Under the pieces are notes generated by a model that searched no databases, was not told the DNA's origin, and saw only the letters and a list, made by a program, of their open reading frames with translations. Made by a program: the position numbers and the translations under genes. Positions 12,045 through 61,873 of a stretch of DNA of 64,000 bases are shown one piece after another. The stretch lies in NCBI GenBank assembly GCA_000092065.1, contig CP000594.1. One strand, 5' to 3'. Source of the DNA: Ostreococcus lucimarinus (taxonomy: Eukaryota). How positions within the stretch are numbered: position 1 is the first letter of the stretch; every line of letters begins with the position of its first letter.

Positions 12045-12937
12045 TTAAAGCGCCGTCGGGCGCCCACCGTCGACGCCGTCGCTCGACGCCTCGGCGGAGG
12101 CGCTCAAATACCCTTGCGCCCACGCCTCGTCGCGACTCCATCCGTCCTTTCCAGATGAAATCGAATTCACCGCCGTGGGCTTGGGTTCAGACGTGTACGA
12201 CGGTCTAGCGCTCTCGACGCGCGAACCGACGGCGTCGAGAAGATCGTTCGCCCACGGCGCGCCCGGCATCACTCCCGACAGATTGGGATCGGCGAAGTGG
12301 GTCTCATCTTTCGGAGCCACCACGTACTCTCCCAATCGACGCTTGATCGCGTTCAGAGCCATCTCCGCTCGAAGCGTGCGCTTTTCAAGTCTTCTGTTCT
12401 CCGCGTTCAAGCTGAGCACTTCGCGCTCGAGCGAAAAGTCGTCCACGAGCATCTTCGCGCGCTCTAAGTGCATTTGCTCCACCTTCGCCCGCAACCGCTT
12501 GCGGTCGGCGCGCGCGGGCCAACCGAGAACCAAATTCCCAAAAAAAGCGCCGAAAAACCCACCCTTCATCACCCGTCGCGTCTCCGGCTTGAGATTCATC
12601 CACTCCTTTCTAATCGGCTCCGTCACCGGCTTCAACAAATTATTAATCTGCCTCGCCGTCGGCCCAAAGTGATCGACCGCCACGTTCATCGACGGCTGTA
12701 TCAACTTCGCCTTCTCATTCATCTCCTTCGTCACCACGTTCTGCGTCGACTGCGCCCACGTCGCCGTCGTCGCCGTCGCTCGTCTCGTCAGCTCGCTCGC
12801 CTTGTCGAACCACTTCCCCCACCCCCCGCCCTTGCCGTCGCCACCGCTCGCGCTCGTCGAGGCCCCACCGCTCGCGCTCTGCGCGCCGCTCGCGCCGTTC
12901 GGTTCCTTGATCGACCGCACCGCGCGTCCGCGCGCGC

Positions 12938-12974
<37 letters not shown>

Positions 12975-13094
12975 GCGTCGTCCCGTCCCTCGTCGTCGCG
13001 CGCCGTCGTCGCGCGTCGTCGCGCGTCCGCGAAACGCGCCGGGTGCGCCGCGATCGAGTCCGCGCGCGCCGAGTCCGCGCGGCGGCGGCAGCAT
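12045..13094 (-). CDS. hypothetical coiled-coil protein with a (Thr)12 tract and a GWGKWFDK.../FFGAFFGNLVLGW hydrophobic segment
   Basis: Minus-strand ORF. The first ATG is at 13094 (the track's 13151 start is TTG). No family recognised. Confidence 0.4.
12940..12975. repeat. trinucleotide microsatellite (GTC)12 encoding the poly-Thr tract on the minus strand
   Basis: ccgtcgtcgtcgtcgtcgtcgtcgtcgtcgtcgtcgtg read directly. Confidence 0.85.
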
Positions 13095-13430
13095 GGCGCC
13101 GCCGTCGTCGCGCGTCGGCGTGCGCGGACGCGCGACGACGCGTCGCGTCAACGGCTCGGTCGGACGAGGACCGCTACACAGCGCAATTGGAGGTACTTTA
13201 TGACCTCAGCGTTCATATTAGGACGGTGCGTGTACCTATTTACCGGACGAGGACTGCGTCGTATCGGTAAACAGTGCGAGCGACTGACGCTTCAGTCGCG
13301 GTCGCGCGACGGACCCGTCGTCGCGCCGCGGCGCGCGCGACGGACCGCGAGCGAGGCGTCGTCCGTCGCTCGACGTCCGCGCGGCGTTCGCGCGCGCGAT
13401 CGAGGCGCGCGCGCGTCGCGACGGACGACG

Positions 13431-41595: not shown

Positions 41596-41637
41596 ATCCC
41601 GCGCTTTGATTACTGTACAGTAATCAAAGCGCGGGAT
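41596..41637. repeat. perfect 42-bp palindrome (atcccgcgctttgattactgt / acagtaatcaaagcgcgggat)
   Basis: The reverse complement of the right 21 nt equals the left 21 nt exactly. Related motif copies are at 40761..40788 (ctttgattactgtacgcgggccatcc) and 61487..61516 (tacagtaatctatacccgggata). Confidence 0.9.
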
Positions 41638-41730
41638 ACCGTGGAATGGACTCGGAAAAACCTCTAGAAGTTCGGCGGCGCCATTCCGCGCGCGATCTCA
41701 GCGGGCGAGCGTGATCACCAACGTGGACCG

Positions 41731-44142: not shown

Positions 44143-44310
44143 ACGCCCCGCGGGGCGTGTGTGCCAGCCCGTAGGGTTTAGGGGATCGGACATATGGAGC
44201 CTCACTATTAAGACACACTGTCATATATATTAATGGATTTATGACAGTGTGTCTTAATAGTGAGGCTCCATATGTCCGACCGCGGGCACACATCCCCGCG
44301 GGGCGCCAGC
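44143..44310. repeat. MITE-like hairpin element. Perfect 38-bp inverted repeat (44187..44224 / 44241..44278) with a 16-nt AT loop, nested in a longer imperfect palindrome and flanked by ccccgcggggcg on both sides
   Basis: cggacatatggagcctcactattaagacacactgtcat / atgacagtgtgtcttaatagtgaggctccatatgtccg are exact reverse complements. Outer arms gccccgcggggcgtgtgtgccagcccg / cgcgggcacacatccccgcggggcg are imperfectly complementary. Confidence 0.55.
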
Positions 44311-44640: not shown

Positions 44641-45180
44641 CTCGTCGTCCTGTGTATCAGCAGTCCTGTAGTAGGAAGTCATTTTTTGCTGTTTTGGGCA
44701 TCCCTTGCGTTCAGAGATTCCATTCTGAAGAAATCTTAAGCGAGGGCACCAAAAACTCAAGGTCTCAACGGTCGCACGCTTCAGACTAGTTACATCTTCT
44801 GTACCTCCAAGCAGCGAAGTGCTCCTGTGTGTCAGGTTTGTCTCACCAAACACCGAGATCTTCGAGAAGACGAACACGTTCCGCTGAGAGTTTGCACGTG
44901 CACCTGTCTTCCTTTGCCTGATTTGTGAGCCATCACCCCAGATTTGAATGTGGCGTATCTTATCGCGACACTCTCGCTTAAGATCTCTTCAGAATGGAAT
45001 CTCTGAACGCAAGCCGTGGATGTATTAAACTGTGAACGAGGCTAGTCATGGTTCGATTTTTTGGATTACAAGTGTAGGTCTACTTTTACGTTTCGTGGAC
45101 TCCGCTTGAGTCGGCCGATGTCACCACGTCAGGTGTTTCGAGTGCACTAGAGACGTGACCGCCGATACACAGGACGTCGA
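44641..45180. repeat. nested inverted-repeat structure: inner arms 44703..44746 vs 44966..45013 (44 bp, 1 mismatch), outer arms 44641..44660 vs 45161..45180
   Basis: Inner arm cccttgcgttcagagattccattctgaagaaatcttaagcgaggg pairs with its reverse complement ctctcgcttaagatctcttcagaatggaatctctgaacgcaagcc. Outer arm ctcgtcgtcctgtgtatcag pairs with gatacacaggacgtcgagc. Confidence 0.6.
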
Positions 45181-46821: not shown

Positions 46822-47111
46822 CCCGCGCGCGCGATCTGCTTTTTCGTCCACGCGGCGTCCACTCGCGAACGCGCGGATACCGTTCGCTCTCTCAGCGCCC
46901 TCCACGTCCGATCGGTTCGGAAGTGACGCGCGCGCGCAGAATAGTTTCGCGTCACAACGCAATTATTCATTCCCGTGTTGATTTTATTCTATTCCAGGGG
47001 GTATGGGTATAGAGTTTACAGTGCCTTCGTACGAGATATTTCCCAACACCCTTTAGTACCAAAACCTAATTGCGTATCTTCCCTCACTTTCCGACGTCAC
47101 GCGCGCACGCG

Positions 47112-50100
47112 ATGACGTCGGCGACGCCGAAACGACGGCGCGCGCGCAGATTTTTGTATGCGTTCGGAGGACCGACACTCTTATTTAACCTCATGCGCGT
47201 GTTTGCCATGTCCGGGCTCGTGGCAACAATTACAATGTCAACAGCCGCGGGCGCCGCCCACGGTGGAGGTGCGAGCATGGACGAGGGACCGGCGCAAATG
47301 CATTATATGCCTGATCGATTTCGCAGCCTCGCGGGCGGCGGCTGGCTTACTATCTCATCGAGAGACGTGCACAAGAGCCTGATGCCCATGCCTGGGATGC
47401 GCGGTGGCGGGGAAGGCGCGAATGAGTCAGCAGTAAGTGGCAGCGCGATGAAGGACGAGGTGAAGATCGATCTGGCCCACGGTGACCCAGACGGTGAGCG
47501 ATCGTGCGATCTCGTGCATTACAAGTCATCCTCGAATGAGTTGGTGTGTTCACCACGTGCGGTGGATTGCTGTTTGGACGGACTCACGGCGCAGGAGCTC
47601 GCCAGCGTAAGCGATGGGTGCCCGTCGGTGAGACCAGAGCTGAACGTCGAGGTCAACGGTCAGCGATTGACGTGGGGCAGCGCTGGTAGAAATGGAAGGG
47701 ACACGCTCACGGACGAAAGTCTCAAAGTGAGCCATGGGCAGACGCCGACGATCGTGGCGGTCGAGCCGGCTGAGGTTCGTCCCGGTGAGTTGATCACGGT
47801 GTACGGACGAACGTGCTTTGGCGATGTTTGGAAGAAAGATGAAGATGATGGTTCGTCTCTACGTGATGATCCCGACGCACTGCGAGATCTATTCTCGGTT
47901 GAAGCGAGCGCAAGAGAGGATCCGCGCCAAGAAATTGGATTGGAAAAGTCTCTCTACAAGGTGCTCATCGGTGACCTACCGTGCGAGGTTCGAGATCCAC
48001 TCACAAACAGGTACTACCGATCCGAGCGCGGCGATGGTCCATACACAGCCCACCGGCAAACAGAGTGTGGACCCGTTAACGGTTGGTTTCAGTGCCGTGT
48101 ACCCCAAGACATCGATTCCGGTCTTCATCTACTTCATTACGAGACGTACACCAGAGGCAATGCTGTGATCCTGTCTGAGGCGCTCAGATGGAATGCATCG
48201 GACGCGTCCAAGGGCTACGTGCTGTCAGTGGTTGATGATAAGTCGGAAGATGAAGATCCACCGCGTGTTTATAACATAACGCAGCTCTCGAAGGATGAGT
48301 CCAAACAGCGACTCCTTGTTGAGGGTGCGTCTCTTGATGCGCCAAATATCGTCGTCGAGCTTGACGGGGAGCGCTGTGGTGGAAAAAAGGTTGTGTCCAG
48401 ATCTGGCATCGAGGTTGAATGCTCAGGTTCAGCTGGAGCGAGCTCGCAGTATCACTACGGCCCCCCCGCGTGGCTGCGTGAAGACTGGGTGTTCAAGGAC
48501 AAGAATAATAAGTTTGTCGGTGGCAAAGCGTGGTCTAACGCTCTCCACGTTTTGAAGCAGCGTGGAGAAAGGTACAACCCTCTCGCCGACGAAGTCATGG
48601 ACGCTTTAAGCTCGGCATTGGCAACGAATGGCATTGTCCGCGGGTACAAGATCGAGAAAGTTCAACAGTATCTCACGAGCCCATCGGTTGGATCACCATA
48701 TGTTGAGGCAACTAGCGGCATGAAAGCGGCGCACGCCGGACTCATCCGTCACCGAAGGATACGGAATGCTGTGTTTGAACGTGTAAGCGGAGTCATCACC
48801 GCCAAAGCAAACGGGCGAATGCGCGTGGCGATCGCCAATGCGGCGGGCAATAACATGGTGCTTCGTGTGCGACATGTTTCCGACAACTTAAATGTATTCA
48901 AACCTTGGTTGTTAGTTTCCAAATTTTGCGGCACCAGATACAGCAGACAAAACATTTATCGATACGGCTTTTCACAGTGGTTCAGTGTTCGTGGTAACGA
49001 AAAATACTATATGGAATTTCTGATGAACTTGGACCCCAGATACTTGCACAATTTCGGGGGATTCGATGTTAAGATGGAATTTTCCTACGACGCGGGTAAT
49101 CCTGCGGGATCAATTGGGCAACTTACGCACACGACAACGCCTCACGTGCCCAAACGAGCGCATGGTGGCGATTACGTCGTGCGCTTTAGCGGCGCTTCGA
49201 AAACTGCGATCAGATTCGCTCATAATGCAACTTCTTCAAGAAGCAATTTTGAGTGGAAACTCTTCAGTGGCGGCAAGACCATCGAGTTCAATACGAAGAA
49301 TTGGTTGCATGCACGCGAACACGTGCGGAAAGTTAGAGACGCTCTGCGATGGGCTAACTGTACCGCGCTGCCTGAAGACTCAAAGATGTGGGACGCGGAC
49401 TCGACCCATTCTTCGCACCCATTCGACGTCGAGAATCGATGGCTCATGGTGCGTGATACGCAGACCTTCAAAGAGCCCACCACAGATTGGAACTTCATAT
49501 GGCAACGTCGCATGGGCGGATTCAGAGGCGCGTCGATCGACTGGAGTACCTCGTACTGTTCGACACACAGTCAAAAATTTGATTTGTCGTCACTACCCCC
49601 AGGAAGAGTCATCACTCCTTCTTCTCATTTCGACGTACCTGCATCTTCTCGTGCGACGACGAATAAGTTTCTGAACTTTGCCTACAAAGTCACTCCGGGT
49701 ACGCGAGCGACCTTGTTACTTCGTCTAAAGTACCGAAGCGGTAATCGGGACATATCGACCACGTGCGCGGTTCTCCTCACCCATGAACAAGCGACTGGGA
49801 ACGTGAAGAACTTCGATCACCCAGCGTGTGTGGACCTTCGAAGCGTCTTCAAGGATGATGGAGAGTGGCACTTTATTTCATTCGATTGGCGAACTGCGTT
49901 GGCCGGTGGTGAGTATGCCCCGAGTTATTTGGGCGAGGCTATGTTCCCGCATAAAGTGCAAGTTCAACTCGATGGTATCGGTGTCGGCGCGCAGAGATTC
50001 CTCGGCAAGTGTCCGAATAAACAGCGCTTAGCGGAAATGTATGTCGGTGATGAAGGAAGTGAACTGCGCGGTTACCTCTGGTTGGATAGCGTTTCTGTGA

Positions 50101-53100
50101 CACAGGAACGCTACTCTCCTCAACGAGTCGAGACGCCCTCTGCACAGCTCGGAGGTATGCAAGAAGGCGTTCACGCAATCACAGATATTGAATATTCGGT
50201 CATCAGCCGAAGCGATGGCTCTAAGTGCAAATCGCTGTCGGACTGTGATATCATCGTGAGCCTGCGTCAGGTGAAGAGATGCATTGATGCGCAGTCGCGA
50301 GGCGATTTCAATATTTCGCCGATGGTGATGTCACAGACGAGTCCAAACCCGCAACCCGCGACGGTCTCGTGTGGTCGTCACTATGCAGCGAACTGCTCGA
50401 CTTGTCCGTGGAAGGTGTCCGCGGAAGGTGTCCGTGGAAGGTGGATGGGCTGGAAATATTGCAATGGTGCGTGCGAATGGAGATGGCACGGGCGTATCAA
50501 TGCAGGTGGCACGTGCGTGTCAAAGCCAGCTCCAACTCCTCCGGCAATAACAGTCACGGATCGTACTTCTTCAACACGTGGAACCGTCACTGCACAGATC
50601 ACAGGGGGGACGATGACGCAATTTTCCACCTCTGCCAATTCATCTGAAGTGCAGGACGCATTACGTCATGTCCTCGGAGCGCACGACGGAGGCTTCGTGG
50701 TGAGTCCAAGCATGGATTTGTTTGATGCGTGCGGTGTGAGCGCTCATCGCATGCGCGTTGCGCATGCGAGCGATCTCGAATCGATCCAAGCGCGGTACAA
50801 AGAAGTCGTCAATGGTGTGCCCCTGGGAATGCTACCGAAATCTTCCCGAGGCCGCACTGCGGAAAATGACGCAGGTCTCCTTAATATAACTGTGAATGTC
50901 TCAGGCGGCCTCGCTGAGATAGTCGCGACAGACGAGTCGAGCGATTTCATCGGTATGGTGCCCCTGGACACGAGAACAGATCTCGATGTGCGCGCCTTGA
51001 TTCGCGGTGGCGACGCCGTGTTGGCGACGGCTGTTGTGACGGATGGCGACACAGTCGTACCATGTTCTGTCTCACCTGACCGTATGTCTGCGACTGGCTT
51101 CAAACAAGTTCCGAACGGGCAGGCATTCGTTGGCGATGCTTCTTGCCACATCATTGTGCCACACGAGGAAGTTGCATCTGACGCGACCGTGCACGCTCCG
51201 ACGGAGTTGAATCAGGATGGTTTTCCCTCACTCGGTGAGTCCGTGAGTCAATCGAGTCCGACAGACCAGAAACGTCGACGGGACGTCGAAACTATCCGTC
51301 GGCGCAGCATGTCAAACTCGCTAAAATTTCCTGGCCATGATACCTGGGCAAAACGAGATCTATCGATGAGTAGATCCGATCTTGGACGATTAACAGTCAC
51401 AGTGGTTGGTTTTGGTGCGCGTGTGCACAACGGCGCCGCGCACCGTAGAGCTGCGAATCACGCGCGGAAACTGTTGAAAACGGAACTCGTCGCGAAGGAT
51501 GCAGGTCAGGGGAGTCTCAACAATACGAAAAGCAAGTATGAATTTCCGGCGGGCGCGGGTCGATTCAGTGATCCATCGACGTGGGGTCCTCGGGGAGTGC
51601 CGGACCAAAACTCGACGGATATGCTCTTTATTCCTGCCGGTTTCAATCTTACTCTGGATGTCGCCGATACGTACTTCCGCGTGTGGGTGATTGAGGGGCA
51701 CCTAAATTTCCAACGGGGCATGAACATCACGATGCAAGCAGAAATGATCGTCATCAACGGCGACGACGCACACTTTAGCATTGGGAGTGAAACACGTCCC
51801 TTTGAAGATCAGGCGAATATCATCATGCACGGTCACTGGCGATCCCTCGGCTTGCCCAAATATGGGGTGAAGTGCATCTCACTGACGAGCGGACGATTAA
51901 CATTCTATGGTCAGCACGTCACGCCTTGGATGGAACTGGCCACTACGGCTTCAGCTAACGCAAACGTTATTTCCGTCAGAAGCAAGGAAGGCAAGACTCC
52001 AGATCTCGCCGGATGGAAACCGGGTGCGAGTATTGTGGTGACGTCAACCTCTTACGGGGACAGGAGATGTCGGCAAAACCGTACAGACGACTGTCAACCC
52101 GAGGAGCGCGTTATTGAATCTGTCACTCCTAGAGGCAACTTTGCGGACATAACTCTCGATCGACCGTTGAAGTATGAACATTTGGGTGAATCCGTGAATG
52201 TGGCGGGAAGCCCCCGCGGGGCTACGATTGAGCGTCGTGCTGAAGTAATGCTTCTCACGAGAAATATCAACGTGCGCGGCACGACTGAACACAATGGGTA
52301 TAAGCTCGTCGGCTTTGGCGCGCACACTATGATGATGTCTGGTCAAATGGTGTTGAAAAATGTTGAATTCGGCCCAAACGTCGGACAGGCCTTCCAACTG
52401 GGTCGGTATGCCATCCACTACCACACGCCCAATGAAAAGATGTTCAAATATGGTTTGACAGCCTCAAATGACCCGAGGATGCAGGGCGCAGACCAGCGCT
52501 TGAGTCGTGTGGAGGGAGTCTCGGTCCACCAATCAAACAACCGTGCGATCGCGGTGCATGGTTGTTATCGACTGAACATCATTAACAACGTCGCGTACAA
52601 CATCTTGGGACATGGGATGTTCGTTGAAGATGGTGTGGAAATGTGGAACCTCTTCAAGGACAACGTTGTTTCTCTAGTGCATCGCTCTTTCTCTCTTTTG
52701 AACACTGATCAAACACCTGCAGCGTTTTGGATATCGAACGCTAACAATTTCTTCATCGGTAATCGAGTGTCATCGAGTAATCATCATGGATATTGGTTTG
52801 ACCCACCAGGAGGACCTACCGGACCGTCGTCGCGAACGCTCACGGGGCCTTTGGAAATCCAAAAATTAAGCACTCGGAAGGTACCGCTCGGCCAGTTTGA
52901 AAATAACAGAGCCCACTCGAATGGCCACTCCGGACTTTGGATTGATCAAATAAACACGGTCTTGCAGCAAGGCGGCAGGCTCAGAATGTACATGGTCGGT
53001 ACCCACGTATGGAACAATGGAATCAACGGTTTCGGAATGATTACCGGCGTTGGGCATCTACAGATTGTGAATACGTTTGCCATGGGCAACGGGATTGACA

Positions 53101-56100
53101 TCATGTATATCAAGTCGACTGGTGCGACGTGGGCGATGCCGACGAATGGTTGGTCCGGTAACTTGGTGTACAACGCCACCCTTCGCGGTGACCCGAAACG
53201 CAATACCCAGGCAATCGGCTGTCCGCACGGCGGATGGGTAACATTTAACGATATCCTCATTAGTGGCTATCAAAGTAGGTTGCCCCCAATACACCACTGC
53301 GCTGTGTGTCCGGGTTTCAAAGGCGGCATGGAAGTTCGTTTCATGAATATGAAATTCGTCGACAGTGATACAAGGCGGCTCCGCGGTGGTTCAACATCTC
53401 GACCGCGCGTATTCTGGAACGGGTACAACTCCAACCTTTTGCTCGACGTGGATGGGACCCTGAGTGGATCGCCAGGTCCACGATGGGCGCATTCAGTCAA
53501 GGGCGCCAGTGATGATCCCAGGAACCGGCCGACGGGTCATTTTCCGCCAGAACACTGCACCCTCAATGATCACATCGGAGGTGTTGTTTGCGACGCCAAC
53601 ACTGTGTCGTTGCGAGAGGTGCAGTGGCGCCGTATCAAGCCCATGACCCTTATACCCATGGCGATGCAGACAGCACCTGATCAAAATGCAGGGCAAGTGA
53701 ACTTTTATCATTACGACCATATCGAGCGACGTTTCAATTGGCGTACGACATTGGTTATGGTTAAAAGTCCGAACGCGAAGCCATACATCCATAACTTTAC
53801 GTTTAAGTTTAAAACATGGCAAATTGATGACCCGGACGCTTGGTACATGGAGGTCCGTGAGCTTCAGCCCAATGAATGGGCTATAATGCGATTCCCCACA
53901 CTCCGCAATCCGTGGCGTTGGAACTTGAATTCAAGAATACCGACGGTCACATTGAATAACTACAATCAAAGTGATTATAGTTTCAATGAGAGCAAGGCCA
54001 TCACCACCACGAGCAACGAATGGCTGAGTTGGAAAAATCACAAGTTCGGCGACCACACATACCTACCCGTTGTGGAGACAAGGGATGTTAATGTAAAGCC
54101 AGATCCAGGGCTGCTCGATATCATGATATCTGGCAAGCGCGAACAAGGATGGACACAATCGTACGCCCTCGGTGCCAACTATGATGGCGCGCGTGAAGAT
54201 ATGCCCGTCTGCACCACTTCATGCGGAAGCTCGGCAAAGTCAACATGTGGCATGAAACGCTACAACTGCAGACCGGGCGACAAGAAACGATGTTTGCCGA
54301 TGGAAAAGCCTGCAAACTGCTTCGACAATCGACCTATACCCGAGGTAGATCCCGAGCCTAAAACTTTTTCCTGGTGCGACTCAAACGAAGTTTGGTCTCC
54401 GCCGGCATTCGGGGATGACGTCATGATCAAGGCTGGTTGGACGGTCATCTTAGATGAAACCTGTCTGGTGACCAACATAACTAGACACGTGGATTTATAT
54501 GGGTCCCTGTTGCTTCGTGATCCAGGCGCTGGTAAAACCATCAAGTTCCGAGCGCAGACCATCCACGTCGCGGCTGGGATTGGATACCTCGAAGCTGGTG
54601 ACCAGGATGATCCGATATCGAATGGCGACGTTCGTATCGAGCTTTATGGGAACAGATTTTCTAACGCTCGAATGGGCTACGGTATGGAGACAAAGTACAT
54701 CGCCGTTCTCGGACACCTCAGCCTCGTCGGAAAGGCGAGCGTGGAGCAAACGTGGTCGACGCTTAGAAGCGATGCGCCCGCGGGAAGCAGTACAATTGAA
54801 ACGACAGCCTGTGGCGGTTGGAATACTGGCGACACGCTCATGATTGGTGGCGCTATGCACAATTGGACCGGGATCAAGCATGCTTGGTTTTTGAGCGCGG
54901 AGCGCTGTGATATTTCCTCCATAGCAGTTGCGAGCGAAGGTTGCGTCATACGGTGTACTTCCAGCTTCAACTACACGCACTCAGGCCCGGCCCAAAAGCA
55001 CGAGGTCAGTTTTGGTGGAATGCCAGTGACTCTCATGCATAGGCGCTCTCCAGGTGGGCGCGTGCAGGTAGTTGGCATGGAAGACAAAAACAAGGCACTG
55101 GCAGAGCAGCACTATGGTGCTGTTATTACTATCCTGAAACCGAAAAAGAAAGGCTATGACGCAAAATTGGCTAAGAGATTCAAGATAGAACTCAAGACGC
55201 CCGAGCGCATGCAAGCGGCAACTGAAAGCATGAAACATGATCCCCCGCCTGAATGCCACCGCAGACAAGGTTCGGCTGTGATCGTCAATGTCAACTTTGC
55301 GCATTGCGGTCAGCGGCACTCTAGTCGCGCGTGTGTTTCTTTTGCCGCCGGTATTGGCGCTGAGTATCGAGCTACGTTCGCAGAAACGACATCGATGGCA
55401 CTCGTTGCGAACAACACATTTGCGGACGCCTACAATTTTGCCGTGAGCGCAGCAGGAGATGGAATTATTATAGAGAATAACGCCATCGCACAAACCTATC
55501 ACGGTGGATTCGAGGTCTCTGGTGCGAACAACACAATGTCTAATAACGCAGCTGTTCGATTATTCGACGATGTTAGTGATTACTTTCACGACATTGGGTC
55601 GGTTGGTTTCAAGTTGTCGGGATCAGGGAAATGGTATACTAACGTCGTCGCCTCCGTGCAGTACACTGGGTTTAAAATTCCTGGATATCCGTGCGAAATG
55701 ATGACTCCAGACGTGGAGGATGAGGGTTTAGACGTTCGCGCTGTGACCACCGTTCCCGCCGAACCTACAATGCGTGACCTTCGCGCGTATGGTGGCATGG
55801 TAGGCGTGAATCTGCGGGGCGGGCGTACTCGGATGGTCACACGTGAACCGGTGGAGGCCTACGCGCCGCTCGAGTGTCGCCAATGGAGCGACTTCGAGAT
55901 TCGTTCAATGGTTTGGTACGGCGTAACCACGTTTGGTCAGGGAAAAACGTCTATTGTGTTGAAAAACTTTAATATTTGGGACACCGGACTTGGTTTCGCG
56001 CTGTGGATGGTCAACGGTGGCTCAGCCGCAGGTTCGAGCAGCGAGCGAGGGCATTTCGCAGAAATCAGTGACACGACGATAATCGGTTCTGCAAGTCGAT

Positions 56101-58946
56101 GTAGAAACGACGGCATTGGGTTTCCCGCGTTTTACTTAACGGCAGAACCGTACCGGCCGGATCAAGGAGTGAAAACGCCATCGCGCTTTGGTGGAACGAC
56201 GCTAAGAAACATAAGGTTTCGCGATTTCGGCGCATGTGAAAAGAAAGGCGTTCGTCAAGTTCGTCAAAAGAATTACGCATTGGTGAACGCCATGAACCGT
56301 GGGCGATACGCGTGGGTTTACTACGACAACGCGAACCCCGTGCGATCTTCTGGCTTGAGCTTTAAGGGTGTACCATTCGAAAACAGGTTACTCATGATCC
56401 ATCCAAGCTGGGGTCGAATAGGCAATGGGAAATGGGGCTGTGCCCAAATGTACTGCGACGGACATCGCAACACGTTTGTGATGGATGAGGACGGTTCGCT
56501 GCTCGGTGATAACGCCGCATTCGGGACCATCTTGCCCGAAAACGAGATTGGTTGGTTCAAGAAACTGGCCTATATCGATCCGCTCAGCCGTGACATTCTT
56601 GAAGATTTGGTTCCATTCACACACCAGTGGCTGCCCAACGGTACCAAACTGACGCCCATGCGAGGGAAGCTCTACGACGAGCCAGGCCATCTCAAAATGG
56701 GCTGTCGAAAGGAGGCTTCATGGCAGGCGTGGCTCTGTCCCGAACACAGGCACAGGCAAATAATCCACGAAAGTTTGGACGGCGATCACACGAAGAGGCG
56801 CATCTCCCCAACTTCTGTTCTCACAGAGCTACCATCTCAGAGCAAGCGTTTCATGTCTCTGTACACTGGGCCTGCGAAATACGGAGGAAACTGGGCAGGT
56901 AAAATAACCAGACATAACACACTCTGGATTACCGGCCATGTCGGCGCGACGCACACGATCCACCACTCGAGCACGAATCCATCCATTTCGCGCGTAACAT
57001 TTGCCGATGCCACGGAGGATGAGGCCGTGCATGTCAAGCTTTATTACGGCGTACCAAATCGTGTCGACGTTTACGTCGATGGAAGGTACGTCCCACCGCT
57101 TGCGAACATCACTTGGGATCAGCCGGACGTTCCTGATATCAGTAGCTCGGGCAGTCTTGAGACTATGCCACACGGCGCGAACTTTTACAATCGTCTGAAC
57201 GGTTATCTCGAATTCGTGCTGAGAGGCCCTAAAGAAGTGCAAATTCGCGTCTCGAACATCGTCGTACTCAGCGCTACCGTCACAGTCACCGAGGACACAT
57301 TCTTCGTGCCGGGAATAAAAGCACTGGTGAACAACATTCGTCTCTTGCTTAACATTCCGGAGGAACGAATCGCAGTCGCGGGAGTTGGCGATTTCAAGCT
57401 AGCGAAACAAATCGCAAAAACTGAAGCATCCTCCCTTGGGTCATCTGGAGACAGTACTGAGCACGTCATCGAATTGCTCATAGAGGAGGCAACTACAACA
57501 CAGCTCAGTTCGAGCGAGGAAGACGTCGAAGACGTAGATCCGGTCGCAGAGGCAAACGCGTACTCGAACTCTAGTTCTGAGCTTACTTCGCTGGCTCGGC
57601 GTGTGCAGCAAAACGCTAAAAATTTGACGTTGGGAACTGCTCTGGGGTTGGCAAATTCAACATTACCAGTTGAAAAGTCACCTATTGACATGGTGGCGGG
57701 CTGGACGTGTGAAACCAGAATGTATAACGATGGCACTTGCGATTGTGATTGTGGCGCGTGGGATCCTGATTGTGACGGTGGGCAGACTATCTTGCGAGGC
57801 TGCCCATCGCACGCGGAGATCAACAGCACCGGTACCCCATTTGAATTCGCAAATAGTGTACGGGCATACTGCGTTAACAATTCAGACGTCGTGACGTGTA
57901 GTTTAGCAGTGCCTCCTGATGACCTCTGCAACGAGTGGCCATGCCTGGATAGTGATCCGTCTGATGTTCTCGTCTCTTACTTACAACGGGCCTCTAGTAA
58001 TGAGTTAAAATGCGTCAAGCGGCAGAGTTCGCCACATGCAATGCATACGGGAGAGTGTGCTTTAAGCATGTTGGACGAGCGTGGCGACACCCTTGAACCG
58101 ATTCTGAGCTGGAACTCCACAGATTTGCCTGCTTCACCACAACCACAAACGTCATCTTCGGTACCGTCTTCACCGCGTCCGGATGTCCCCGCACCAGTAC
58201 CGTCTTCATCGCGTCCGGATGTACCCGCACCAGTACCGTCTTCGCTGCGTCCAGATGTACCCGCACCGGTACCGTCTTCGCCGCGTCCGGATGTACCCGC
58301 ACCGGTACCGTCTTCGCCGCGTCCGGATGTACCCGCACCGGTACCGTCTTCGCCGCGTCCGGATGCTCCGCATCGAGGCCCCTCACGAGAGTCAGCACAA
58401 GCGCGACGAGACCGCCGTCGTGACGACCGCGCGCGTCAAAGACGAAGCATTAGAAGGCTTCAAAGACAAATCGCTAGAAGATTTTCTGTCTCACAGGAAG
58501 ACTTGAGAAATGCGACAACATTGAGCTCGATTGTTGAGCTTGCGCAGGCTGAGGTGCAAGAAGCCCAACGCTCCGTACCAACACTACAGACGAAATATGA
58601 GTCGGCGAAGGCTCTGTACAAAGGGAACAGAACTACTACAAATAAAGCGGCGCGCCGCCAGGCAAAGATAAATTTGCGCGTTGGAAGAAAACAACTGAGG
58701 CGCGCGAACAAGAAGCTTGAATTACTTGAAGAACTCAGCAGGGCACTCACCACACCGGAACAAGGCGGCGCTTTTGCCCTTGGTATCGGTAACCCACGCG
58801 GACGAGAAAATTCGATGCTCGTCGTCGCTGTCGCGATGGGCGCGTGCGCCATGGCCTCCCTCGCCGTGCGATCTCACCGCAGAGCGAACAAACGACTTTA
58901 CGTGGATGAATCCACGGCACTCTTGAGGAATCGTAGGCGTTTTTGA
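47112..58946 (+). CDS. giant (~3,940 aa) fibrocystin-L/PKHD1L1-like single-pass membrane protein. Order: signal sequence, TIG/IPT-like domains, G8 domain, parallel beta-helix (PbH1) repeats, second G8 domain, beta-helix region, 6 x 11-aa Pro-rich stalk repeat, coiled coil, C-terminal TM, short cytoplasmic tail
   Basis: First in-frame ATG at 47112 (the track's 47070 is TTG). Signal-like MRVFAMSGLVATITMSTAAGAAHG. TIG-like QTPTIVAVEPAEVRPGELITVYGRTCFG. G8-1 is FSDPSTWGPRGVPDQNSTDMLFIPAGFNLTLDVADTYFRVWVIEGHLNF...IVINGDDAHFSIGSETRPFEDQANIIMHG. PbH1-like runs include NRAIAVHGCYRLNIINNVAYNILGHGMFVEDG...NANNFFIGNRVSSSNHHGYWFD. G8-2 is SWCDSNEVWSPPAFGDDVMIKAGWTVILDETCLVTNITRHVDLYGSLLL...GDVRIELYGN. 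Stalk repeat is RPDVPAPVPSS x6. TM is MLVVAVAMGACAMASLAV, tail RSHRRANKRLYVDESTALLRNRRRF. Confidence 0.8.
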   Translation: MTSATPKRRRARRFLYAFGGPTLLFNLMRVFAMSGLVATITMSTAAGAAHGGGASMDEGPAQMHYMPDRFRSLAGGGWLTISSRDVHKSLMPMPGMRGGGEGANESAVSGSAMKDEVKIDLAHGDPDGERSCDLVHYKSSSNELVCSPRAVDCCLDGLTAQELASVSDGCPSVRPELNVEVNGQRLTWGSAGRNGRDTLTDESLKVSHGQTPTIVAVEPAEVRPGELITVYGRTCFGDVWKKDEDDGSSLRDDPDALRDLFSVEASAREDPRQEIGLEKSLYKVLIGDLPCEVRDPLTNRYYRSERGDGPYTAHRQTECGPVNGWFQCRVPQDIDSGLHLLHYETYTRGNAVILSEALRWNASDASKGYVLSVVDDKSEDEDPPRVYNITQLSKDESKQRLLVEGASLDAPNIVVELDGERCGGKKVVSRSGIEVECSGSAGASSQYHYGPPAWLREDWVFKDKNNKFVGGKAWSNALHVLKQRGERYNPLADEVMDALSSALATNGIVRGYKIEKVQQYLTSPSVGSPYVEATSGMKAAHAGLIRHRRIRNAVFERVSGVITAKANGRMRVAIANAAGNNMVLRVRHVSDNLNVFKPWLLVSKFCGTRYSRQNIYRYGFSQWFSVRGNEKYYMEFLMNLDPRYLHNFGGFDVKMEFSYDAGNPAGSIGQLTHTTTPHVPKRAHGGDYVVRFSGASKTAIRFAHNATSSRSNFEWKLFSGGKTIEFNTKNWLHAREHVRKVRDALRWANCTALPEDSKMWDADSTHSSHPFDVENRWLMVRDTQTFKEPTTDWNFIWQRRMGGFRGASIDWSTSYCSTHSQKFDLSSLPPGRVITPSSHFDVPASSRATTNKFLNFAYKVTPGTRATLLLRLKYRSGNRDISTTCAVLLTHEQATGNVKNFDHPACVDLRSVFKDDGEWHFISFDWRTALAGGEYAPSYLGEAMFPHKVQVQLDGIGVGAQRFLGKCPNKQRLAEMYVGDEGSELRGYLWLDSVSVTQERYSPQRVETPSAQLGGMQEGVHAITDIEYSVISRSDGSKCKSLSDCDIIVSLRQVKRCIDAQSRGDFNISPMVMSQTSPNPQPATVSCGRHYAANCSTCPWKVSAEGVRGRWMGWKYCNGACEWRWHGRINAGGTCVSKPAPTPPAITVTDRTSSTRGTVTAQITGGTMTQFSTSANSSEVQDALRHVLGAHDGGFVVSPSMDLFDACGVSAHRMRVAHASDLESIQARYKEVVNGVPLGMLPKSSRGRTAENDAGLLNITVNVSGGLAEIVATDESSDFIGMVPLDTRTDLDVRALIRGGDAVLATAVVTDGDTVVPCSVSPDRMSATGFKQVPNGQAFVGDASCHIIVPHEEVASDATVHAPTELNQDGFPSLGESVSQSSPTDQKRRRDVETIRRRSMSNSLKFPGHDTWAKRDLSMSRSDLGRLTVTVVGFGARVHNGAAHRRAANHARKLLKTELVAKDAGQGSLNNTKSKYEFPAGAGRFSDPSTWGPRGVPDQNSTDMLFIPAGFNLTLDVADTYFRVWVIEGHLNFQRGMNITMQAEMIVINGDDAHFSIGSETRPFEDQANIIMHGHWRSLGLPKYGVKCISLTSGRLTFYGQHVTPWMELATTASANANVISVRSKEGKTPDLAGWKPGASIVVTSTSYGDRRCRQNRTDDCQPEERVIESVTPRGNFADITLDRPLKYEHLGESVNVAGSPRGATIERRAEVMLLTRNINVRGTTEHNGYKLVGFGAHTMMMSGQMVLKNVEFGPNVGQAFQLGRYAIHYHTPNEKMFKYGLTASNDPRMQGADQRLSRVEGVSVHQSNNRAIAVHGCYRLNIINNVAYNILGHGMFVEDGVEMWNLFKDNVVSLVHRSFSLLNTDQTPAAFWISNANNFFIGNRVSSSNHHGYWFDPPGGPTGPSSRTLTGPLEIQKLSTRKVPLGQFENNRAHSNGHSGLWIDQINTVLQQGGRLRMYMVGTHVWNNGINGFGMITGVGHLQIVNTFAMGNGIDIMYIKSTGATWAMPTNGWSGNLVYNATLRGDPKRNTQAIGCPHGGWVTFNDILISGYQSRLPPIHHCAVCPGFKGGMEVRFMNMKFVDSDTRRLRGGSTSRPRVFWNGYNSNLLLDVDGTLSGSPGPRWAHSVKGASDDPRNRPTGHFPPEHCTLNDHIGGVVCDANTVSLREVQWRRIKPMTLIPMAMQTAPDQNAGQVNFYHYDHIERRFNWRTTLVMVKSPNAKPYIHNFTFKFKTWQIDDPDAWYMEVRELQPNEWAIMRFPTLRNPWRWNLNSRIPTVTLNNYNQSDYSFNESKAITTTSNEWLSWKNHKFGDHTYLPVVETRDVNVKPDPGLLDIMISGKREQGWTQSYALGANYDGAREDMPVCTTSCGSSAKSTCGMKRYNCRPGDKKRCLPMEKPANCFDNRPIPEVDPEPKTFSWCDSNEVWSPPAFGDDVMIKAGWTVILDETCLVTNITRHVDLYGSLLLRDPGAGKTIKFRAQTIHVAAGIGYLEAGDQDDPISNGDVRIELYGNRFSNARMGYGMETKYIAVLGHLSLVGKASVEQTWSTLRSDAPAGSSTIETTACGGWNTGDTLMIGGAMHNWTGIKHAWFLSAERCDISSIAVASEGCVIRCTSSFNYTHSGPAQKHEVSFGGMPVTLMHRRSPGGRVQVVGMEDKNKALAEQHYGAVITILKPKKKGYDAKLAKRFKIELKTPERMQAATESMKHDPPPECHRRQGSAVIVNVNFAHCGQRHSSRACVSFAAGIGAEYRATFAETTSMALVANNTFADAYNFAVSAAGDGIIIENNAIAQTYHGGFEVSGANNTMSNNAAVRLFDDVSDYFHDIGSVGFKLSGSGKWYTNVVASVQYTGFKIPGYPCEMMTPDVEDEGLDVRAVTTVPAEPTMRDLRAYGGMVGVNLRGGRTRMVTREPVEAYAPLECRQWSDFEIRSMVWYGVTTFGQGKTSIVLKNFNIWDTGLGFALWMVNGGSAAGSSSERGHFAEISDTTIIGSASRCRNDGIGFPAFYLTAEPYRPDQGVKTPSRFGGTTLRNIRFRDFGACEKKGVRQVRQKNYALVNAMNRGRYAWVYYDNANPVRSSGLSFKGVPFENRLLMIHPSWGRIGNGKWGCAQMYCDGHRNTFVMDEDGSLLGDNAAFGTILPENEIGWFKKLAYIDPLSRDILEDLVPFTHQWLPNGTKLTPMRGKLYDEPGHLKMGCRKEASWQAWLCPEHRHRQIIHESLDGDHTKRRISPTSVLTELPSQSKRFMSLYTGPAKYGGNWAGKITRHNTLWITGHVGATHTIHHSSTNPSISRVTFADATEDEAVHVKLYYGVPNRVDVYVDGRYVPPLANITWDQPDVPDISSSGSLETMPHGANFYNRLNGYLEFVLRGPKEVQIRVSNIVVLSATVTVTEDTFFVPGIKALVNNIRLLLNIPEERIAVAGVGDFKLAKQIAKTEASSLGSSGDSTEHVIELLIEEATTTQLSSSEEDVEDVDPVAEANAYSNSSSELTSLARRVQQNAKNLTLGTALGLANSTLPVEKSPIDMVAGWTCETRMYNDGTCDCDCGAWDPDCDGGQTILRGCPSHAEINSTGTPFEFANSVRAYCVNNSDVVTCSLAVPPDDLCNEWPCLDSDPSDVLVSYLQRASSNELKCVKRQSSPHAMHTGECALSMLDERGDTLEPILSWNSTDLPASPQPQTSSSVPSSPRPDVPAPVPSSSRPDVPAPVPSSLRPDVPAPVPSSPRPDVPAPVPSSPRPDVPAPVPSSPRPDAPHRGPSRESAQARRDRRRDDRARQRRSIRRLQRQIARRFSVSQEDLRNATTLSSIVELAQAEVQEAQRSVPTLQTKYESAKALYKGNRTTTNKAARRQAKINLRVGRKQLRRANKKLELLEELSRALTTPEQGGAFALGIGNPRGRENSMLVVAVAMGACAMASLAVRSHRRANKRLYVDESTALLRNRRRF
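58156..58375 (+). repeat. 33-bp tandem repeat x6 (ccgtcttcrccgcgtccggatgtmcccgcaccrgta) encoding (SS[PSL]RPDVPAPVP)6 inside the giant gene
   Basis: Read directly. Units differ by 1-2 synonymous or conservative substitutions. Confidence 0.85.
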
Positions 58947-59029
58947 ACAGTACAATTTTGTCATACCTACAGTCGCAAGCAAAAACGCCACATTCAAATT
59001 TGGGCGTCCCGCTTAAGATTTCGGTACCC

Positions 59030-59072
59030 TCGCTTAAGATTTCTTCAGAATGGAATCTCTGAACGCAAGGCG
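59030..59072 (+). repeat. third copy of the cgcttaagatttcttcagaatggaatctctgaacgcaag repeat also found at 44703..44746 (inverted) and 44966..45013. Adjacent 58990..59012 matches a further piece of the 44.9-kb region in inverse orientation
   Basis: ccctcgcttaagatttcttcagaatggaatctctgaacgcaagg matches 44966..45013 at ~95%. gccacattcaaattt is the reverse complement of aaatttgaatgtggc at ~44941. Confidence 0.6.
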
Positions 59073-59544
59073 TGAAATCACTTAGCCATCCTGCCCGAGT
59101 CTGACGAAAGTAGCAAAGTAGCACTTTTTGCACGCCTCCCAAAGGTGGCCCCTGGGGAAATTATTTATTTTGTGGAGTGGTGAAAAATAAAAATTCCCAC
59201 TGGATACCTTCTGGGACACTGCTTTTTTGCTACTTTTGCTACTTTTTCGACGAGATCGGGGTACTGCAAAGCACACGGCGAAGACGGGTGGCCGATGATC
59301 CGTGTGCGCGTGTCGCCTTTGATGGGTCGCTCCCGTTCATGACTCAAGAGTTGTCGCGCGACCTCGCGCGTGCACGAGGGTGCCACGTTTTAGGTACCAG
59401 AGGTGCCCATTTCTTCGTGGTAAGATGGTCCCTCGTGTATCACGCCGCTCCCCTTTAAGCATGAAAAGTTGTGTCCAATATATTGCGCGCGATGTCCGAT
59501 GGTACATCATACAATATCATAGTTAAGCCACACTTATCATACGA

Positions 59545-59705
59545 CGGTGGCGGTCCACCTGTCGGTCGTCACAGAAAAGTTGCGTCTGAGACTGAGGATG
59601 TGTGTTGCTCATGTGTCTTATATATACCTCATACATACATATATTAACATTTACAACGATATGTATGGGGTGCCCAGCCCATCCGCGCGGCGTGGCTTCT
59701 GCCGG
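59545..59705. repeat. copy A of a ~150-bp dispersed repeat (ggcgg.ccacctgtcggt...gaaaagttgcg...gaggatg...ctcat.aatacatatatta...ggtgcccagcccatccgcgcgg)
   Basis: Alignable by eye to 60450..60613 at ~75-80% identity with indels. Both copies end in the identical 22-mer ggtgcccagcccatccgcgcgg. Confidence 0.6.
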
Positions 59706-60024
59706 TTTTTGCCATTCGAACCATGAGAAACTACAACTCTATAATAACTTAAACTTAAAATTTTTTTAAGTTTAAGTACCTACACGTTAGTAATTTTGAA
59801 AATTTTTGTGACCCGTGACTCCCAAGCAAAAAGTCGCGCGTTGCTCCAGTGGCTGGGCACCCAAACATGGACCCAGACTCATGAATCATGAACCGTGAAT
59901 AGCCGAGTCCCAGGATTGACGAATCATGACTCGTATCAATCCGCCGCTCCCGAATGCGTGTGCCCCGTGTGACGAAATCGTCTCCGGGATCCGGAGGAAA
60001 AAACCTCCAGGAGGAAAACCTAAA

Positions 60025-60116
60025 GCGCGCGATCGACGTCTCCGAACGTCAAAGCCCGCCGCCTCCCTCCGCGCGCGATCGACGTCTCCGAACGTCAAAG
60101 CCCGCCGCCTCCCTCT
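60025..60116 (+). repeat. 2 x 46-bp tandem duplication (gcgcgatcgacgtctccgaacgtcaaagcccgccgcctccctc)
   Basis: Read directly. The copies differ at 1-2 positions. Confidence 0.8.
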
Positions 60117-60449
60117 GCGCGTGCTCGCGCGCCCGAGGAACGGTCAGCGTTTCCGCTCCGGCGTCCAGTAGGAGTTCCCGTGAAACGGACCAAAAGGAGG
60201 CTTTGTTGCGTGTTTGCCAGTTTTCGAGGACGTTGGAGTGAGAGGGCGCTTGCCGAGATGCCCTCCATCTTGATCTCGCGCGAAAACTGTTTCATGTTCC
60301 GCCGGGCCATCGTCGCCGATCGCGTCGCCGTGCATACTGTCCACGGGCTTAAAAAGGTCGCGGAGGTCAACGTTATCACTCATGGTCATTTTTTGACGTT
60401 TTGTTTCTGTCGCGCCCGACATCTTGCGTCGGAGTGGGTCAATGGCGAC

Positions 60450-60613
60450 GGCGGCGGCGGCCCACCTGTCGGTGTTTACGGAAAAGTTGCGGCTCGAAAT
60501 GAGGATGGCGTGGCCCATGTTTCTTATAGATACCTCATGAATACATATATTACAAGTTATAATGCTATTAATATATAATTGATTGGATGGGTGCCCAGCC
60601 CATCCGCGCGGGC
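60450..60613. repeat. copy B of the ~150-bp dispersed repeat, lying just 3' of the GIY-YIG ORF
   Basis: See copy A (59545..59705). Confidence 0.6.
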
Positions 60614-60644
60614 TGTATCTAGCTAGCTATGTATGTGCGACGGA

Positions 60645-61145
60645 TTAAAAACAGCACCAAATATTTTTTAAACAGCACCAACATTTTTTATAGTCGGTTT
60701 CATCGGTTTCCTCGATGGTCGAGCCTAGTTCCAGTTCACCGAGGAGCTGCTCGTCTTCTTCATGCAACCACGGTTCGTCCGCGCGTCCAGGCACAACGTT
60801 CGGACACTGGTTCACAAAATGGCCCAACTGACCACACCTGAAGCATCGATCACCCGCACCTCGCATCATGAGTTCGATAATCTCGAGGTGCGATCTCGGG
60901 AGAACGATCTGACTGAACGTCCCACCGCGTACGTTCTCAACGCCGTGTTCGGCCATGAGTCGTAACACGTGCTTGTCCTCGTCAAATGGTCCACATTCCT
61001 CGATGAACAGTCGACGGTACGGTTTGTATTTTTTCGTCCACGCGGCACCCATGCCGCGAAAATGGTCGTCGATCCTCGACCTGTTGTCGCACCGCCCCAC
61101 GTAGTATTTGCCCTGCGCACACGCGAGGCCGTATATCAGTGACAT
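60645..61145 (-). CDS. GIY-YIG nuclease-domain protein fused to a CCHC zinc knuckle and an acidic, Cys/Trp-rich tail (166 aa). Candidate selfish or mobile-element nuclease
   Basis: Verified ATG at 61145. N-terminus MSLIYGLACAQGKYYVGRCDNRSRIDDHFRG...AAWTKKYKPYRRLFIEE...HVLRLMAEHGVENVRGGTF carries the GIY...YYVG, conserved R, and catalytic E / N-V-R-G-G elements of GIY-YIG nucleases. CFRCGQLGHFVNQCP is a CX2CX4HX4C zinc knuckle. C-terminus is ETDETDYKKCWCCLKNIWCCF. The ORF lies in a ~50% GC repeat-flanked island. Confidence 0.55.
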   Translation of the reverse strand: MSLIYGLACAQGKYYVGRCDNRSRIDDHFRGMGAAWTKKYKPYRRLFIEECGPFDEDKHVLRLMAEHGVENVRGGTFSQIVLPRSHLEIIELMMRGAGDRCFRCGQLGHFVNQCPNVVPGRADEPWLHEEDEQLLGELELGSTIEETDETDYKKCWCCLKNIWCCF

Positions 61146-61269
61146 GATCCATGTGGTCTAGTGCCCCCGGGCCGTCGTCGCGCGCGCCGCGGTGTGCGGG
61201 GGCACGCAGACCAGCGGCGGCGGTCGAGTCGCAGATGCGTCCATCACTGACGTCGAACGAGAATCGGGA

Positions 61270-61440
61270 TCACCCGTGGGTCCGTTGGCGCCCCGCGGGT
61301 GTGTGTGTCAGCCCTCAGGATAACCAGCCGCGCGAGGATCAAATCAAACATGGACCCGAACTCGCGGGTGTCGACACGGTCGGTCGGACATATGGAGCCT
61401 CACAATTTGGCCGTATGACCACATATATTAATTTATGTAT
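61270..61440. repeat. partial (left-half) copy of the 44.2-kb hairpin element: cgccccgcggg + gtgtgtg + cagccc ... cggacatatggagcctcac... + atatattaat
   Basis: ggtcggacatatggagcctcacaatttggccgtatgaccacatatattaatttatg resembles 44187..44240 (cggacatatggagcctcactattaagacacactgtcatatatattaatggattt). The upstream gcgccccgcgggtgtgtgtgtcagccc resembles 44145..44170. Confidence 0.5.
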
Positions 61441-61873
61441 GGCTATCATCCCGTGCTATCCCGGGGGTAAATTACAGTACAGTAATCTATACCCGGGATA
61501 GCGCGGGCTGAATAGAATAAATCCAGTAATATACGTTGTTTTTTGGTGTTGCACATTTTTTTAGTGTTACACCGCGCGTGCAAGCGACACTTCGTCCCGC
61601 GGTGGCGGAAGTTCTGTCATCTATAGAAAGCGATCTTCACCATTGATCAGTTCGATTAGCTCTGTTCTTTGAGCGTACTCATTATTCTTGGATCACTTAA
61701 ATAATCTTAAGCGGTGACAGAAAAAACAAAATTTTGGTGATTTTGGTGATAATCCGACCGACCGAACAACACGCGCGCTCGAACGAACGTCGAGTGTTAC
61801 GCCATCATTCGTCCGCGCTCTTGCACGTGAACTCGAGGCACCGACGAAAGAAAAATCACCACATAATCGCCCG

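Follow-up and report, generated by a model that had tools for sequence, protein, structure and literature searches.

The nearest described analogues of the gene reported here are the GIY-YIG-Zn-ribbon proteins of virophages and polintons (Mavirus MV06, OLV1), which have an N-terminal GIY-YIG domain followed by a small C-terminal zinc module (PMC3671162, Yutin et al., 2013). In these proteins, which we liken to ours by their description, the zinc module is a C2H2 Zn-ribbon rather than the CCHC knuckle found here, and in both cases a GIY-YIG domain joined to a zinc module circulates in the giant-virus mobilome (PMC3671162). For proteins that combine GIY-YIG with a CCHC knuckle, we found no paper on experimental characterization in the searchable literature. 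Here, we analyzed a 64,000-nucleotide stretch of nuclear DNA from the picoalga Ostreococcus lucimarinus (“the window”; GenBank assembly GCA_000092065.1, contig CP000594.1) and focused on a repeat-rich spacer at positions 58947-61873. The spacer carries a nuclease gene of prasinovirus type, which was probably acquired by the host lineage, fixed at a rearrangement junction and truncated at its C-terminus.

The gene was recognized from a list of open reading frames (ORFs), an exact-sequence look-up, Pfam matches and 689 homologues. Its features, with amino acid (aa) numbers referring to the encoded protein, are as follows.

60645..61145 including the stop codon, minus strand: coding sequence of the 166-aa GIY-YIG and CCHC protein
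60855..61145, minus strand: GIY-YIG nuclease domain, aa 1-97, with the putative catalytic set Y5, Y15, R24, H28, E56 and N71
60798..60848, minus strand: CCHC zinc knuckle C101-x2-C104-x4-H109-x4-C114, aa 100-116 (Pfam PF00098 and knuckle matches in the PDB)
60723..60776, minus strand: remnant of the first helix of a helix-turn-helix (HTH; Myb/GcrA-like) module, aa 124-141, EPWLHEEDEQLLGELELG (from alignments)
60648..60683, minus strand: Cys/Trp-rich C-terminal tail CWCCLKNIWCCF (from alignments)

The protein is identical to O. lucimarinus CCE9901 XP_001421470.1 (ABO99763.1; UniRef A4S7K6), which is annotated as a “CCHC-type domain-containing protein”. A first-pass annotation, made from the letters of the window, had described a minus-strand ORF of 166 aa that opens with a GIY-YIG core and continues into a retroviral-type zinc knuckle, and both parts of this description hold. 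The N-terminus reads MSLIYGL...KYYVG, where the “GIY” and “YIG” strand motifs are represented by LIY (aa 3-5) and YYVG (aa 14-17), about 10 residues apart. The zf-CCHC family scores 28.4 bits against a cut-off of 20.8 over aa 100-116, with C101, C104, H109 and C114 as ligands. In alignments of 20 and of 119 homologues, residues Y5, Y14/Y15, G17, R24, H28, W36, T37 and E56 are invariant or nearly so, and the same degree of conservation extends to N71-V-R-G-G75 and to the four zinc ligands. The putative catalytic assignment is made from spacing, as we take Y5-Y15-R24-H28-E56-N71 to correspond to Y6-Y17-R27-H31-E75-N90 of I-TevI. An AlphaFold2 model based on the 119-sequence alignment has a mean predicted local distance difference test (pLDDT) score of 86, with values of at least 95 for the nuclease domain and knuckle and of 54-80 for the tail, and the protein is predicted to have the alpha/beta fold of GIY-YIG nucleases. 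Compared with the PDB, a family profile gives its best matches to UPF0213 proteins (BH0048, E = 2.5e-8; EF2693, 9e-7) and a faint one to SLX1 (E = 0.09), and the knuckle matches TUT7, HIV nucleocapsid and similar proteins. Weak ankyrin/DARPin matches within the GIY-YIG domain were unsupported by the model and were disregarded. The protein has no match, and hence no defense-system membership, among the PADLOC families; it has none in NCBIfam, and none to reverse transcriptase in Pfam.

Past the knuckle, the closest relatives continue with a segment of ~40 aa (PWSHEEDxRL..G.S..E....H.R..GAI.SR.KR), an acidic stretch and a terminal CC[FW], and distant viral members have a second CCHC knuckle in place of the ~40-aa segment. 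Matches of the intact module to Myb, HTH and GcrA families are all sub-threshold, so that a Myb/SANT identity was not adopted and the label is kept at “HTH-like”. Nearly all members of the subfamily end in CC[FW]; the O. lucimarinus protein ends in WCCF, as do those of the viral contigs L027 and L028. The O. lucimarinus protein retains the first helix, aa 124-141, and then passes directly into the Cys/Trp tail. In alignments, this tail falls opposite the second zinc knuckle of viral homologues at greater distance. Compared with its nearest relatives, the protein has lost ~36 aa of the HTH-like module. As only the first helix is kept before the WCCF tail, we read the protein as a truncated derivative.

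The family to which this protein belongs is very large. A word-indexed protein search returned 689 homologues, most of them with both PF01541 and PF00098, and an exhaustive search of 1.84 billion representatives of clusters defined at 50% identity returned 3,331 cluster representatives at E<=1e-10. In IMG/VR, 455 loci encode relatives, many of them in giant-virus metagenome-assembled genomes (GVMAGs), with a median GC content of 29% for 80 of the 455. Foldseek comparison with BFVD identified members in Yasminevirus (four paralogues), Klosneuvirus, Fadolivirus, Terrestrivirus, Marseillevirus LCMAC and Orpheovirus (“GIY-YIG nuclease with Zinc finger domain”). The domain pairing, initially thought to be non-standard, is indeed not a transposase architecture, but it is very common in giant viruses, and to judge from these sequences the family is characteristic of nucleocytoplasmic large DNA viruses (NCLDVs).

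The comparison with prasinovirus and giant-virus genes that had been suggested at first pass led to the closest relatives (70-76% identity), which are encoded in prasinovirus-like contigs. In L027 and L028 (39-41% GC), a 195-aa homologue with 70-74% identity is located between genes for proline dehydrogenase and ThyX, near an FkbM methyltransferase and an ABC1 kinase, a neighborhood that we take to be a prasinovirus-type gene set. The homologue in L115 (P0006 group; ~75% identity in the core) occurs in the context of asparagine synthase, PhoH, glycosyltransferases, DUF5824 and DUF5904. Both L018 and L019 encode NCLDV capsid, VLTF3, PCNA and AEP primase, and a distance of a few kb separates the nuclease gene from an AEP primase-NUDIX-DUF5775 group in each of them. 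L015 is a 224-kb contig of 29% GC with NCLDV capsid and VLTF3, and in L029 the viral relative is encoded near an RNase_T/PD-(D/E)XK exonuclease. Phylogenetic placement by neighbor-joining (118 conserved residues, no support values, and metagenomic sequences only besides O. lucimarinus) groups the O. lucimarinus protein with P0003, P0005, P0006 and P0004/L027/L028. This clade is sister to the P0007-P0010 group, inside a wider giant-virus radiation.

The P0003/P0204 group comprises L002-L005 and L022-L025, and its P0003 homologues are 69-76% identical to the O. lucimarinus protein. At about 7796-10994 of L022-L025 (also in L002-L005), genes for a canonical histone H3, FtsH, the nuclease homologue and a Myb protein are separated by spacers of 7-50 bp; the homologue lies 12 bp after the FtsH gene and 7 bp before the Myb gene, and genes for ClpP and a DEAD helicase are also near. 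Adjacency of FtsH and nuclease genes recurs in the IMG/VR locus L038, where the FtsH proteins are 74% identical. The L022-type contigs, with 52.7% GC and a virus-like ORF density, resemble the viral L018 and L115, and could represent either a prasinovirus-like virus that encodes H3 or an uncultured alga. This neighborhood, with its H3, FtsH, ClpP and DEAD helicase genes, would fit an alternative in which an ancestral Mamiellales gene, of which the O. lucimarinus copy is the original, was later captured by prasinoviruses. Such viruses are known to acquire host genes, and the repetition of the FtsH-nuclease adjacency in viral L038 is compatible with en-bloc capture from a host. We nevertheless consider a host origin unlikely, given that related Ostreococcus-like contigs are without the gene at the orthologous site (see below), that O. 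lucimarinus provides the sole named cellular homologue among the best 120 of the 689 matches, that thousands of giant-virus sequences, with 18-50% GC, surround the subclade, and that the L022-type contigs themselves are virus-like in ORF density, at 52-53% GC as in L018 and L115.

Evidence for a past arrival comes from the orthologous region of related species. The nuclease gene lies between a giant gene on one side and a gene for a 643-aa protein on the other, and homologues of the latter (56-69% identity) were found on Ostreococcus-like contigs of 62-63% GC (L112 and L113/114). In these contigs the downstream side of the 643-aa gene is syntenic (a 490/499-aa gene is 89% identical), and the upstream side consists of unrelated housekeeping genes (a 314-aa ORF, DEAD helicase, SURF1, DWNN). 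Neither the giant gene nor a nuclease homologue is present within 10 kb of the 643-aa orthologue. The nuclease gene is thus located exactly at a synteny breakpoint, which indicates that it was inserted, or brought by rearrangement, in the O. lucimarinus lineage. Synteny in related species, which had been raised as an argument against an insertion, was not found beside the 643-aa orthologue, and a past insertion therefore remains supported. Absence at the orthologous site is also expected from ordinary horizontal transfer or from rearrangement.

Within the species, the gene occupies a single fixed locus. It was found between the 643-aa gene and the giant gene in eight of eight same-species contigs (L001, L006-L010, L026 and L111; independent metagenomic or Logan contigs with 99.1-100% nucleotide identity), and the reading frame is intact in every one of them. 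No second copy was detected in the window by tblastn, and the protein is represented in O. lucimarinus by one accession pair, whereas two are found for each of the duplicated genes, which encode poly(A) polymerase and the 689-aa DOMON protein. The presence/absence polymorphism between strains that had been proposed as a check was not observed in the eight contigs: large polymorphisms are confined to indels in the flanks, including two segments that are missing in L026.

59817..60643, no strand: 827-bp spacer segment that contains repeat copy 2 and the tandem duplication described below
61144..61277, no strand: 134-bp GC-rich segment abutting the ATG

Without positions 61144-61277, the ORF of L026 has a replaced start codon 24 codons upstream and encodes 190 aa. 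The gene of another strain, at the same locus (L001, 4605-5117), has an in-frame duplication of 12 bp (RIAD) beside R24/H28 and six amino acid changes, clustered at aa 24-53.

Over longer distances the gene appears to be under purifying selection: the ratio of non-synonymous to synonymous substitution rates (dN/dS) is 0.13 against the L022 homologue, a comparison in which dS is saturated, and 0.10 between the viral L027 and L028. Its GC content at third codon positions (GC3 = 0.62) is nearer to that of its low-GC neighbors than to that of housekeeping genes (0.69-0.74), and far exceeds the overall GC content (39-41%) of those low-GC viral contigs that encode close relatives. These values bear on whether the gene could be a decaying remnant, i.e., a transferred viral gene whose frame is still open but which has no function in the alga. 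The shortened HTH-like module, with ~36 aa fewer than in the nearest relatives, would fit decay, as would the excess of non-synonymous over synonymous differences between strains, the in-frame duplication beside the active site, the displaced start codon and the large indels in the flanking spacers. We regard this as very unlikely, because the frame is intact in all contigs and the catalytic residues and zinc ligands are all retained, and because a GC3 well above the 39-41% GC of those viral contigs suggests a long stay in the host during which the gene was not lost. The eight strain-level changes are too few to judge selection or to show relaxation.

The first-pass annotation had proposed a low-GC island bounded by repeats, carrying either a novel mobile element or a domesticated nuclease. 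The repeats and related features of the spacer, none of which is assigned to a strand, are as follows.

59541..59690: ~150-bp direct repeat, copy 1, 3' of the gene
60448..60611: ~150-bp direct repeat, copy 2, which ends 34 bp 3' of the stop codon
60025..60116: 2 x 46-bp tandem duplication, 98% identical
59012..59074: solo fragment resembling the terminal inverted repeat (TIR) of a unit at 44704-45013, immediately downstream of the stop codon of the giant gene
61418..61539: palindromic hairpin repeat, located in the spacer from which the nuclease gene and the 643-aa gene diverge (DNA fold z = -4.5)

Both ~150-bp copies are real (~75-80% identical; BLAST E = 2e-25), but they do not bracket the ORF, as both are 3' of the stop codon; what they enclose is the 46-bp tandem duplication, itself already recognized at first pass, and not the nuclease gene. 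A 23-mer conserved in both copies occurs in only five metagenome stretches, one of which is the same locus and one a diverged orthologue spanning the 59817 boundary, and the repeat is therefore not a high-copy element. Because the more diverged L110 spans this boundary, the 827-bp difference is probably a deletion in L026 and not an insertion in the window, and the 23-mer scan together with the L110 boundary led us to reject the segment as a mobile insertion. A 124-aa ORF inside it (60144-60518) has no Pfam match and was taken as spurious, and the ORF list contains no ORF longer than 132 aa in 58947-61873 other than the nuclease.

Recurrence of spacer repeats near 41 and 44 kb, also claimed initially, could be reproduced at 44 kb: positions 59012-59074 match 44703-44761 and 44970-45018 with 93-94% identity, and 61381-61441 match 44186-44282. 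The similarity at 41 kb is just a weak palindrome match of 43-49 bp (E = 1e-4). The sequence at 44704-45013 is a 310-bp unit resembling a miniature inverted-repeat transposable element (MITE), with 41-bp TIRs (97.6%). The outer end of the fragment at 59012-59074 faces the gene, which excludes this fragment as an end of any element carrying the gene. The sole inverted pair that spans the gene (59031-59048 and 61696-61713; 18 nt, 83% match) is, by our estimate, near chance level. An island bounded by MITE TIRs is ruled out by the orientation of the fragment and the weakness of this 18-nt match, and repeat analysis of the region identified neither TIRs nor target-site duplications (TSDs) bounding the island. 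The hairpin at 61418-61539 belongs to a small dispersed palindromic family of intergenic spacers, with other members at 44186-44279, at 41596-41644 and in L108/L109.

Mobility could also be that of the gene itself. A free-standing homing-type or selfish nuclease gene, whose product cleaves a target and which is then copied into the cleaved site, would explain both the arrival in the host and the varied positions in viruses. Mobile GIY-YIG endonucleases have been documented in chloroviruses (PMC4468942). Klosneuvirus-like viruses have several paralogues per genome, one GVMAG has the gene twice, and prasinovirus-like contigs present it in at least three different gene neighborhoods; in O. lucimarinus, it occupies a synteny break in repeat-rich DNA and is missing at the orthologous site of relatives. 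Such a history seems doubtful to us, given the one copy at one fixed locus in eight independent same-species contigs and the lack of TIRs and TSDs in the region. Between related viral contigs the gene is syntenic (L027/L028, and L018/L019 near AEP primase), the sequence of the domain is closest to the UPF0213/SLX1 type, and in place of a long sequence-specific DNA-binding domain there is just a 17-aa knuckle and a truncated HTH-like remnant. The paper on chloroviruses (PMC4468942) describes no movement of mobile elements in Ostreococcus or Micromonas viruses. Of the two possibilities proposed at first pass, the mobile element is thus contradicted by the single-copy, fixed locus without termini or TSDs, and the domesticated nuclease is supported as an alternative.

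We consider it probable that the gene came from a virus. An ancestor of O. lucimarinus would have acquired it from an infecting prasinovirus, and the transferred gene would have landed at what is now a synteny breakpoint and become fixed there. It would then have lost the C-terminal HTH-like module, with the nuclease domain, the knuckle and the CC[FW] terminus being kept. The predicted GIY-YIG domain (Tyr5/Tyr15, Arg24, His28, Glu56, Asn71) would cleave a DNA phosphodiester bond by the usual GIY-YIG chemistry, and the CCHC knuckle may hold single-stranded or distorted nucleic acid, directing cleavage. Probable substrates would be nicked, branched or single-stranded intermediates of replication or recombination, and not a long specific homing site. 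The loose proximity of viral copies to replication and recombination genes (AEP primase, and the exonuclease in L029) fits this proposal. We infer activity, substrate and biological role, like the direction of transfer, and the proposed mechanism draws on the chemistry of the family and on domain content.

Several points weigh against this account. Transfer from virus to host is not proven, since the tree is unsupported and sampled from metagenomes. The P0003 group, beside a canonical histone H3, may be a second algal carrier, which would make this an older host gene. Differences within the species (two synonymous and six non-synonymous, plus the 12-bp duplication in L001 and the start codon in L026) reveal no clear constraint. 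Lastly, in the profile search that had been advised for this ORF, the zinc knuckle exceeded its threshold and GIY-YIG PF01541 did not, scoring 21.2 bits on the window protein alone (aa 2-56), slightly under the 22.6 cut-off; the viral relative in L029 scores 25.4 bits, most family members have a precomputed PF01541 match, and the family profile matches UPF0213.

Other histories for the same gene appear quite unlikely to us, though each can be stated. The alga could have domesticated a prasinovirus nuclease, for instance for its response to infection or DNA damage; the nuclease could by its own cutting have made the break that is now the synteny breakpoint; or an FtsH-nuclease pair could move en bloc between Mamiellales hosts and their viruses. 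In O. tauri, a “GIY-YIG nuclease” (ostta16g00515) is induced with DNA-repair genes (PMC4855317), but orthology to the O. lucimarinus protein could not be demonstrated.

The window as a whole is nuclear DNA of a compact eukaryote, with large ORFs that include Tudor-SN, a P-type ATPase, RRP12, poly(A) polymerase, a cofilin-domain protein and a VPS13-like protein. The region 58950-61850 has 51.8% GC, compared with 53.1% for the adjoining giant gene, 51.3% for the 689-aa gene and 56.2% for the whole window, and GC is ~49-55% throughout 41-61 kb. The drop to ~50% GC that had been noted past the giant gene is therefore not an island-like step, and a low-GC foreign island is ruled out, as GC is not below that of the flanking 20 kb. 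A second low-GC block (12468-25211; 47-50% GC) is the region of the VPS13-like giant housekeeping gene, so that in the O. lucimarinus genome low GC alone is no sign of foreign DNA. Comparison by tblastx of 40-47 kb, 58.9-64 kb, 12-27 kb and the extension provided by L026 with 85 viral loci gave the nuclease gene as the sole match, ruling out a larger endogenous viral segment around it for the regions compared.

The giant gene (47070-58946, plus strand) is an intron-less ORF of 3,958 aa with G8, beta-helix and CEMIP domains according to the L026 record. It includes a 36-bp x 5.8 tandem repeat (58159-58365) that encodes a Pro-rich repeat, and from the accession order ABO99582 to ABO99583 it may be without a GenBank annotation. 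Poly(A) polymerase (37910-39706, minus strand) and the 689-aa “DOMON” protein (41731-43800, plus strand) have two NCBI accessions each in O. lucimarinus, which implies an identical second copy in the same 708,927-bp record, and hence a recent segmental duplication. The DOMON protein was found in 267 collection blocks, and its neighbor gene differs from that of the window at the four places shown. DNA past the right end of the window is represented in the closely related strain contig L026 (334-1605 and 1728-2012), which carries a 423-aa Prim-Pol gene (PF09250, E = 6e-9) ~2.3 kb beyond the window end and, also to the right of it, a second copy (91.5%) of window positions 59234-59527.

These results reveal no new class of mobile element. 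They provide one more clear example of the exchange of genes already known between Mamiellales picoalgae and prasinoviruses, and they point to a very large and experimentally untouched giant-virus family that joins a GIY-YIG nuclease to a CCHC knuckle. With a copy encoded by the host itself, in an alga that can be cultured and is a relative of the genetically tractable O. tauri, there is a practical route to the function of the nuclease.

Among cellular and mobile GIY-YIG systems, the nuclease core of this family shares the “H..G.G...T” signature of bacterial UPF0213/YhbQ-type proteins. The structure-specific endonuclease SLX1 offers a parallel layout, with an N-terminal GIY-YIG domain followed by a zinc-binding module, but SLX1 joins a URI-type GIY-YIG domain to a C-terminal zinc finger of RING/PHD type, a combination that the O. 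lucimarinus protein does not have. Homing endonucleases of the I-TevI type possess a linker and a sequence-specific DNA-binding domain, both absent here, and the O. lucimarinus gene differs from them in having no intron or intein association and no sign of current mobility. In Penelope-like retroelements, GIY-YIG is linked to a reverse transcriptase ORF, of which there is none in 58947-61873. The giant-virus proteins annotated as GIY-YIG nucleases with a zinc finger or as CCHC-type (Orpheovirus A0A2I2L4G4, Yasminevirus A0A5K0U8Q4, Klosneuvirus A0A1V0SKB8) are of the same family, with 33-76% identity, the same order of GIY-YIG and then CCHC knuckle, and matching invariant residues; the prasinovirus subclade has in addition the C-terminal CC[FW] in common with the O. 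lucimarinus protein. Unlike the viral members, the O. lucimarinus copy resides in a cellular genome and has neither the HTH-like module nor a second knuckle after the first. The O. lucimarinus protein is thus a new cellular member of a known, uncharacterized giant-virus nuclease family.

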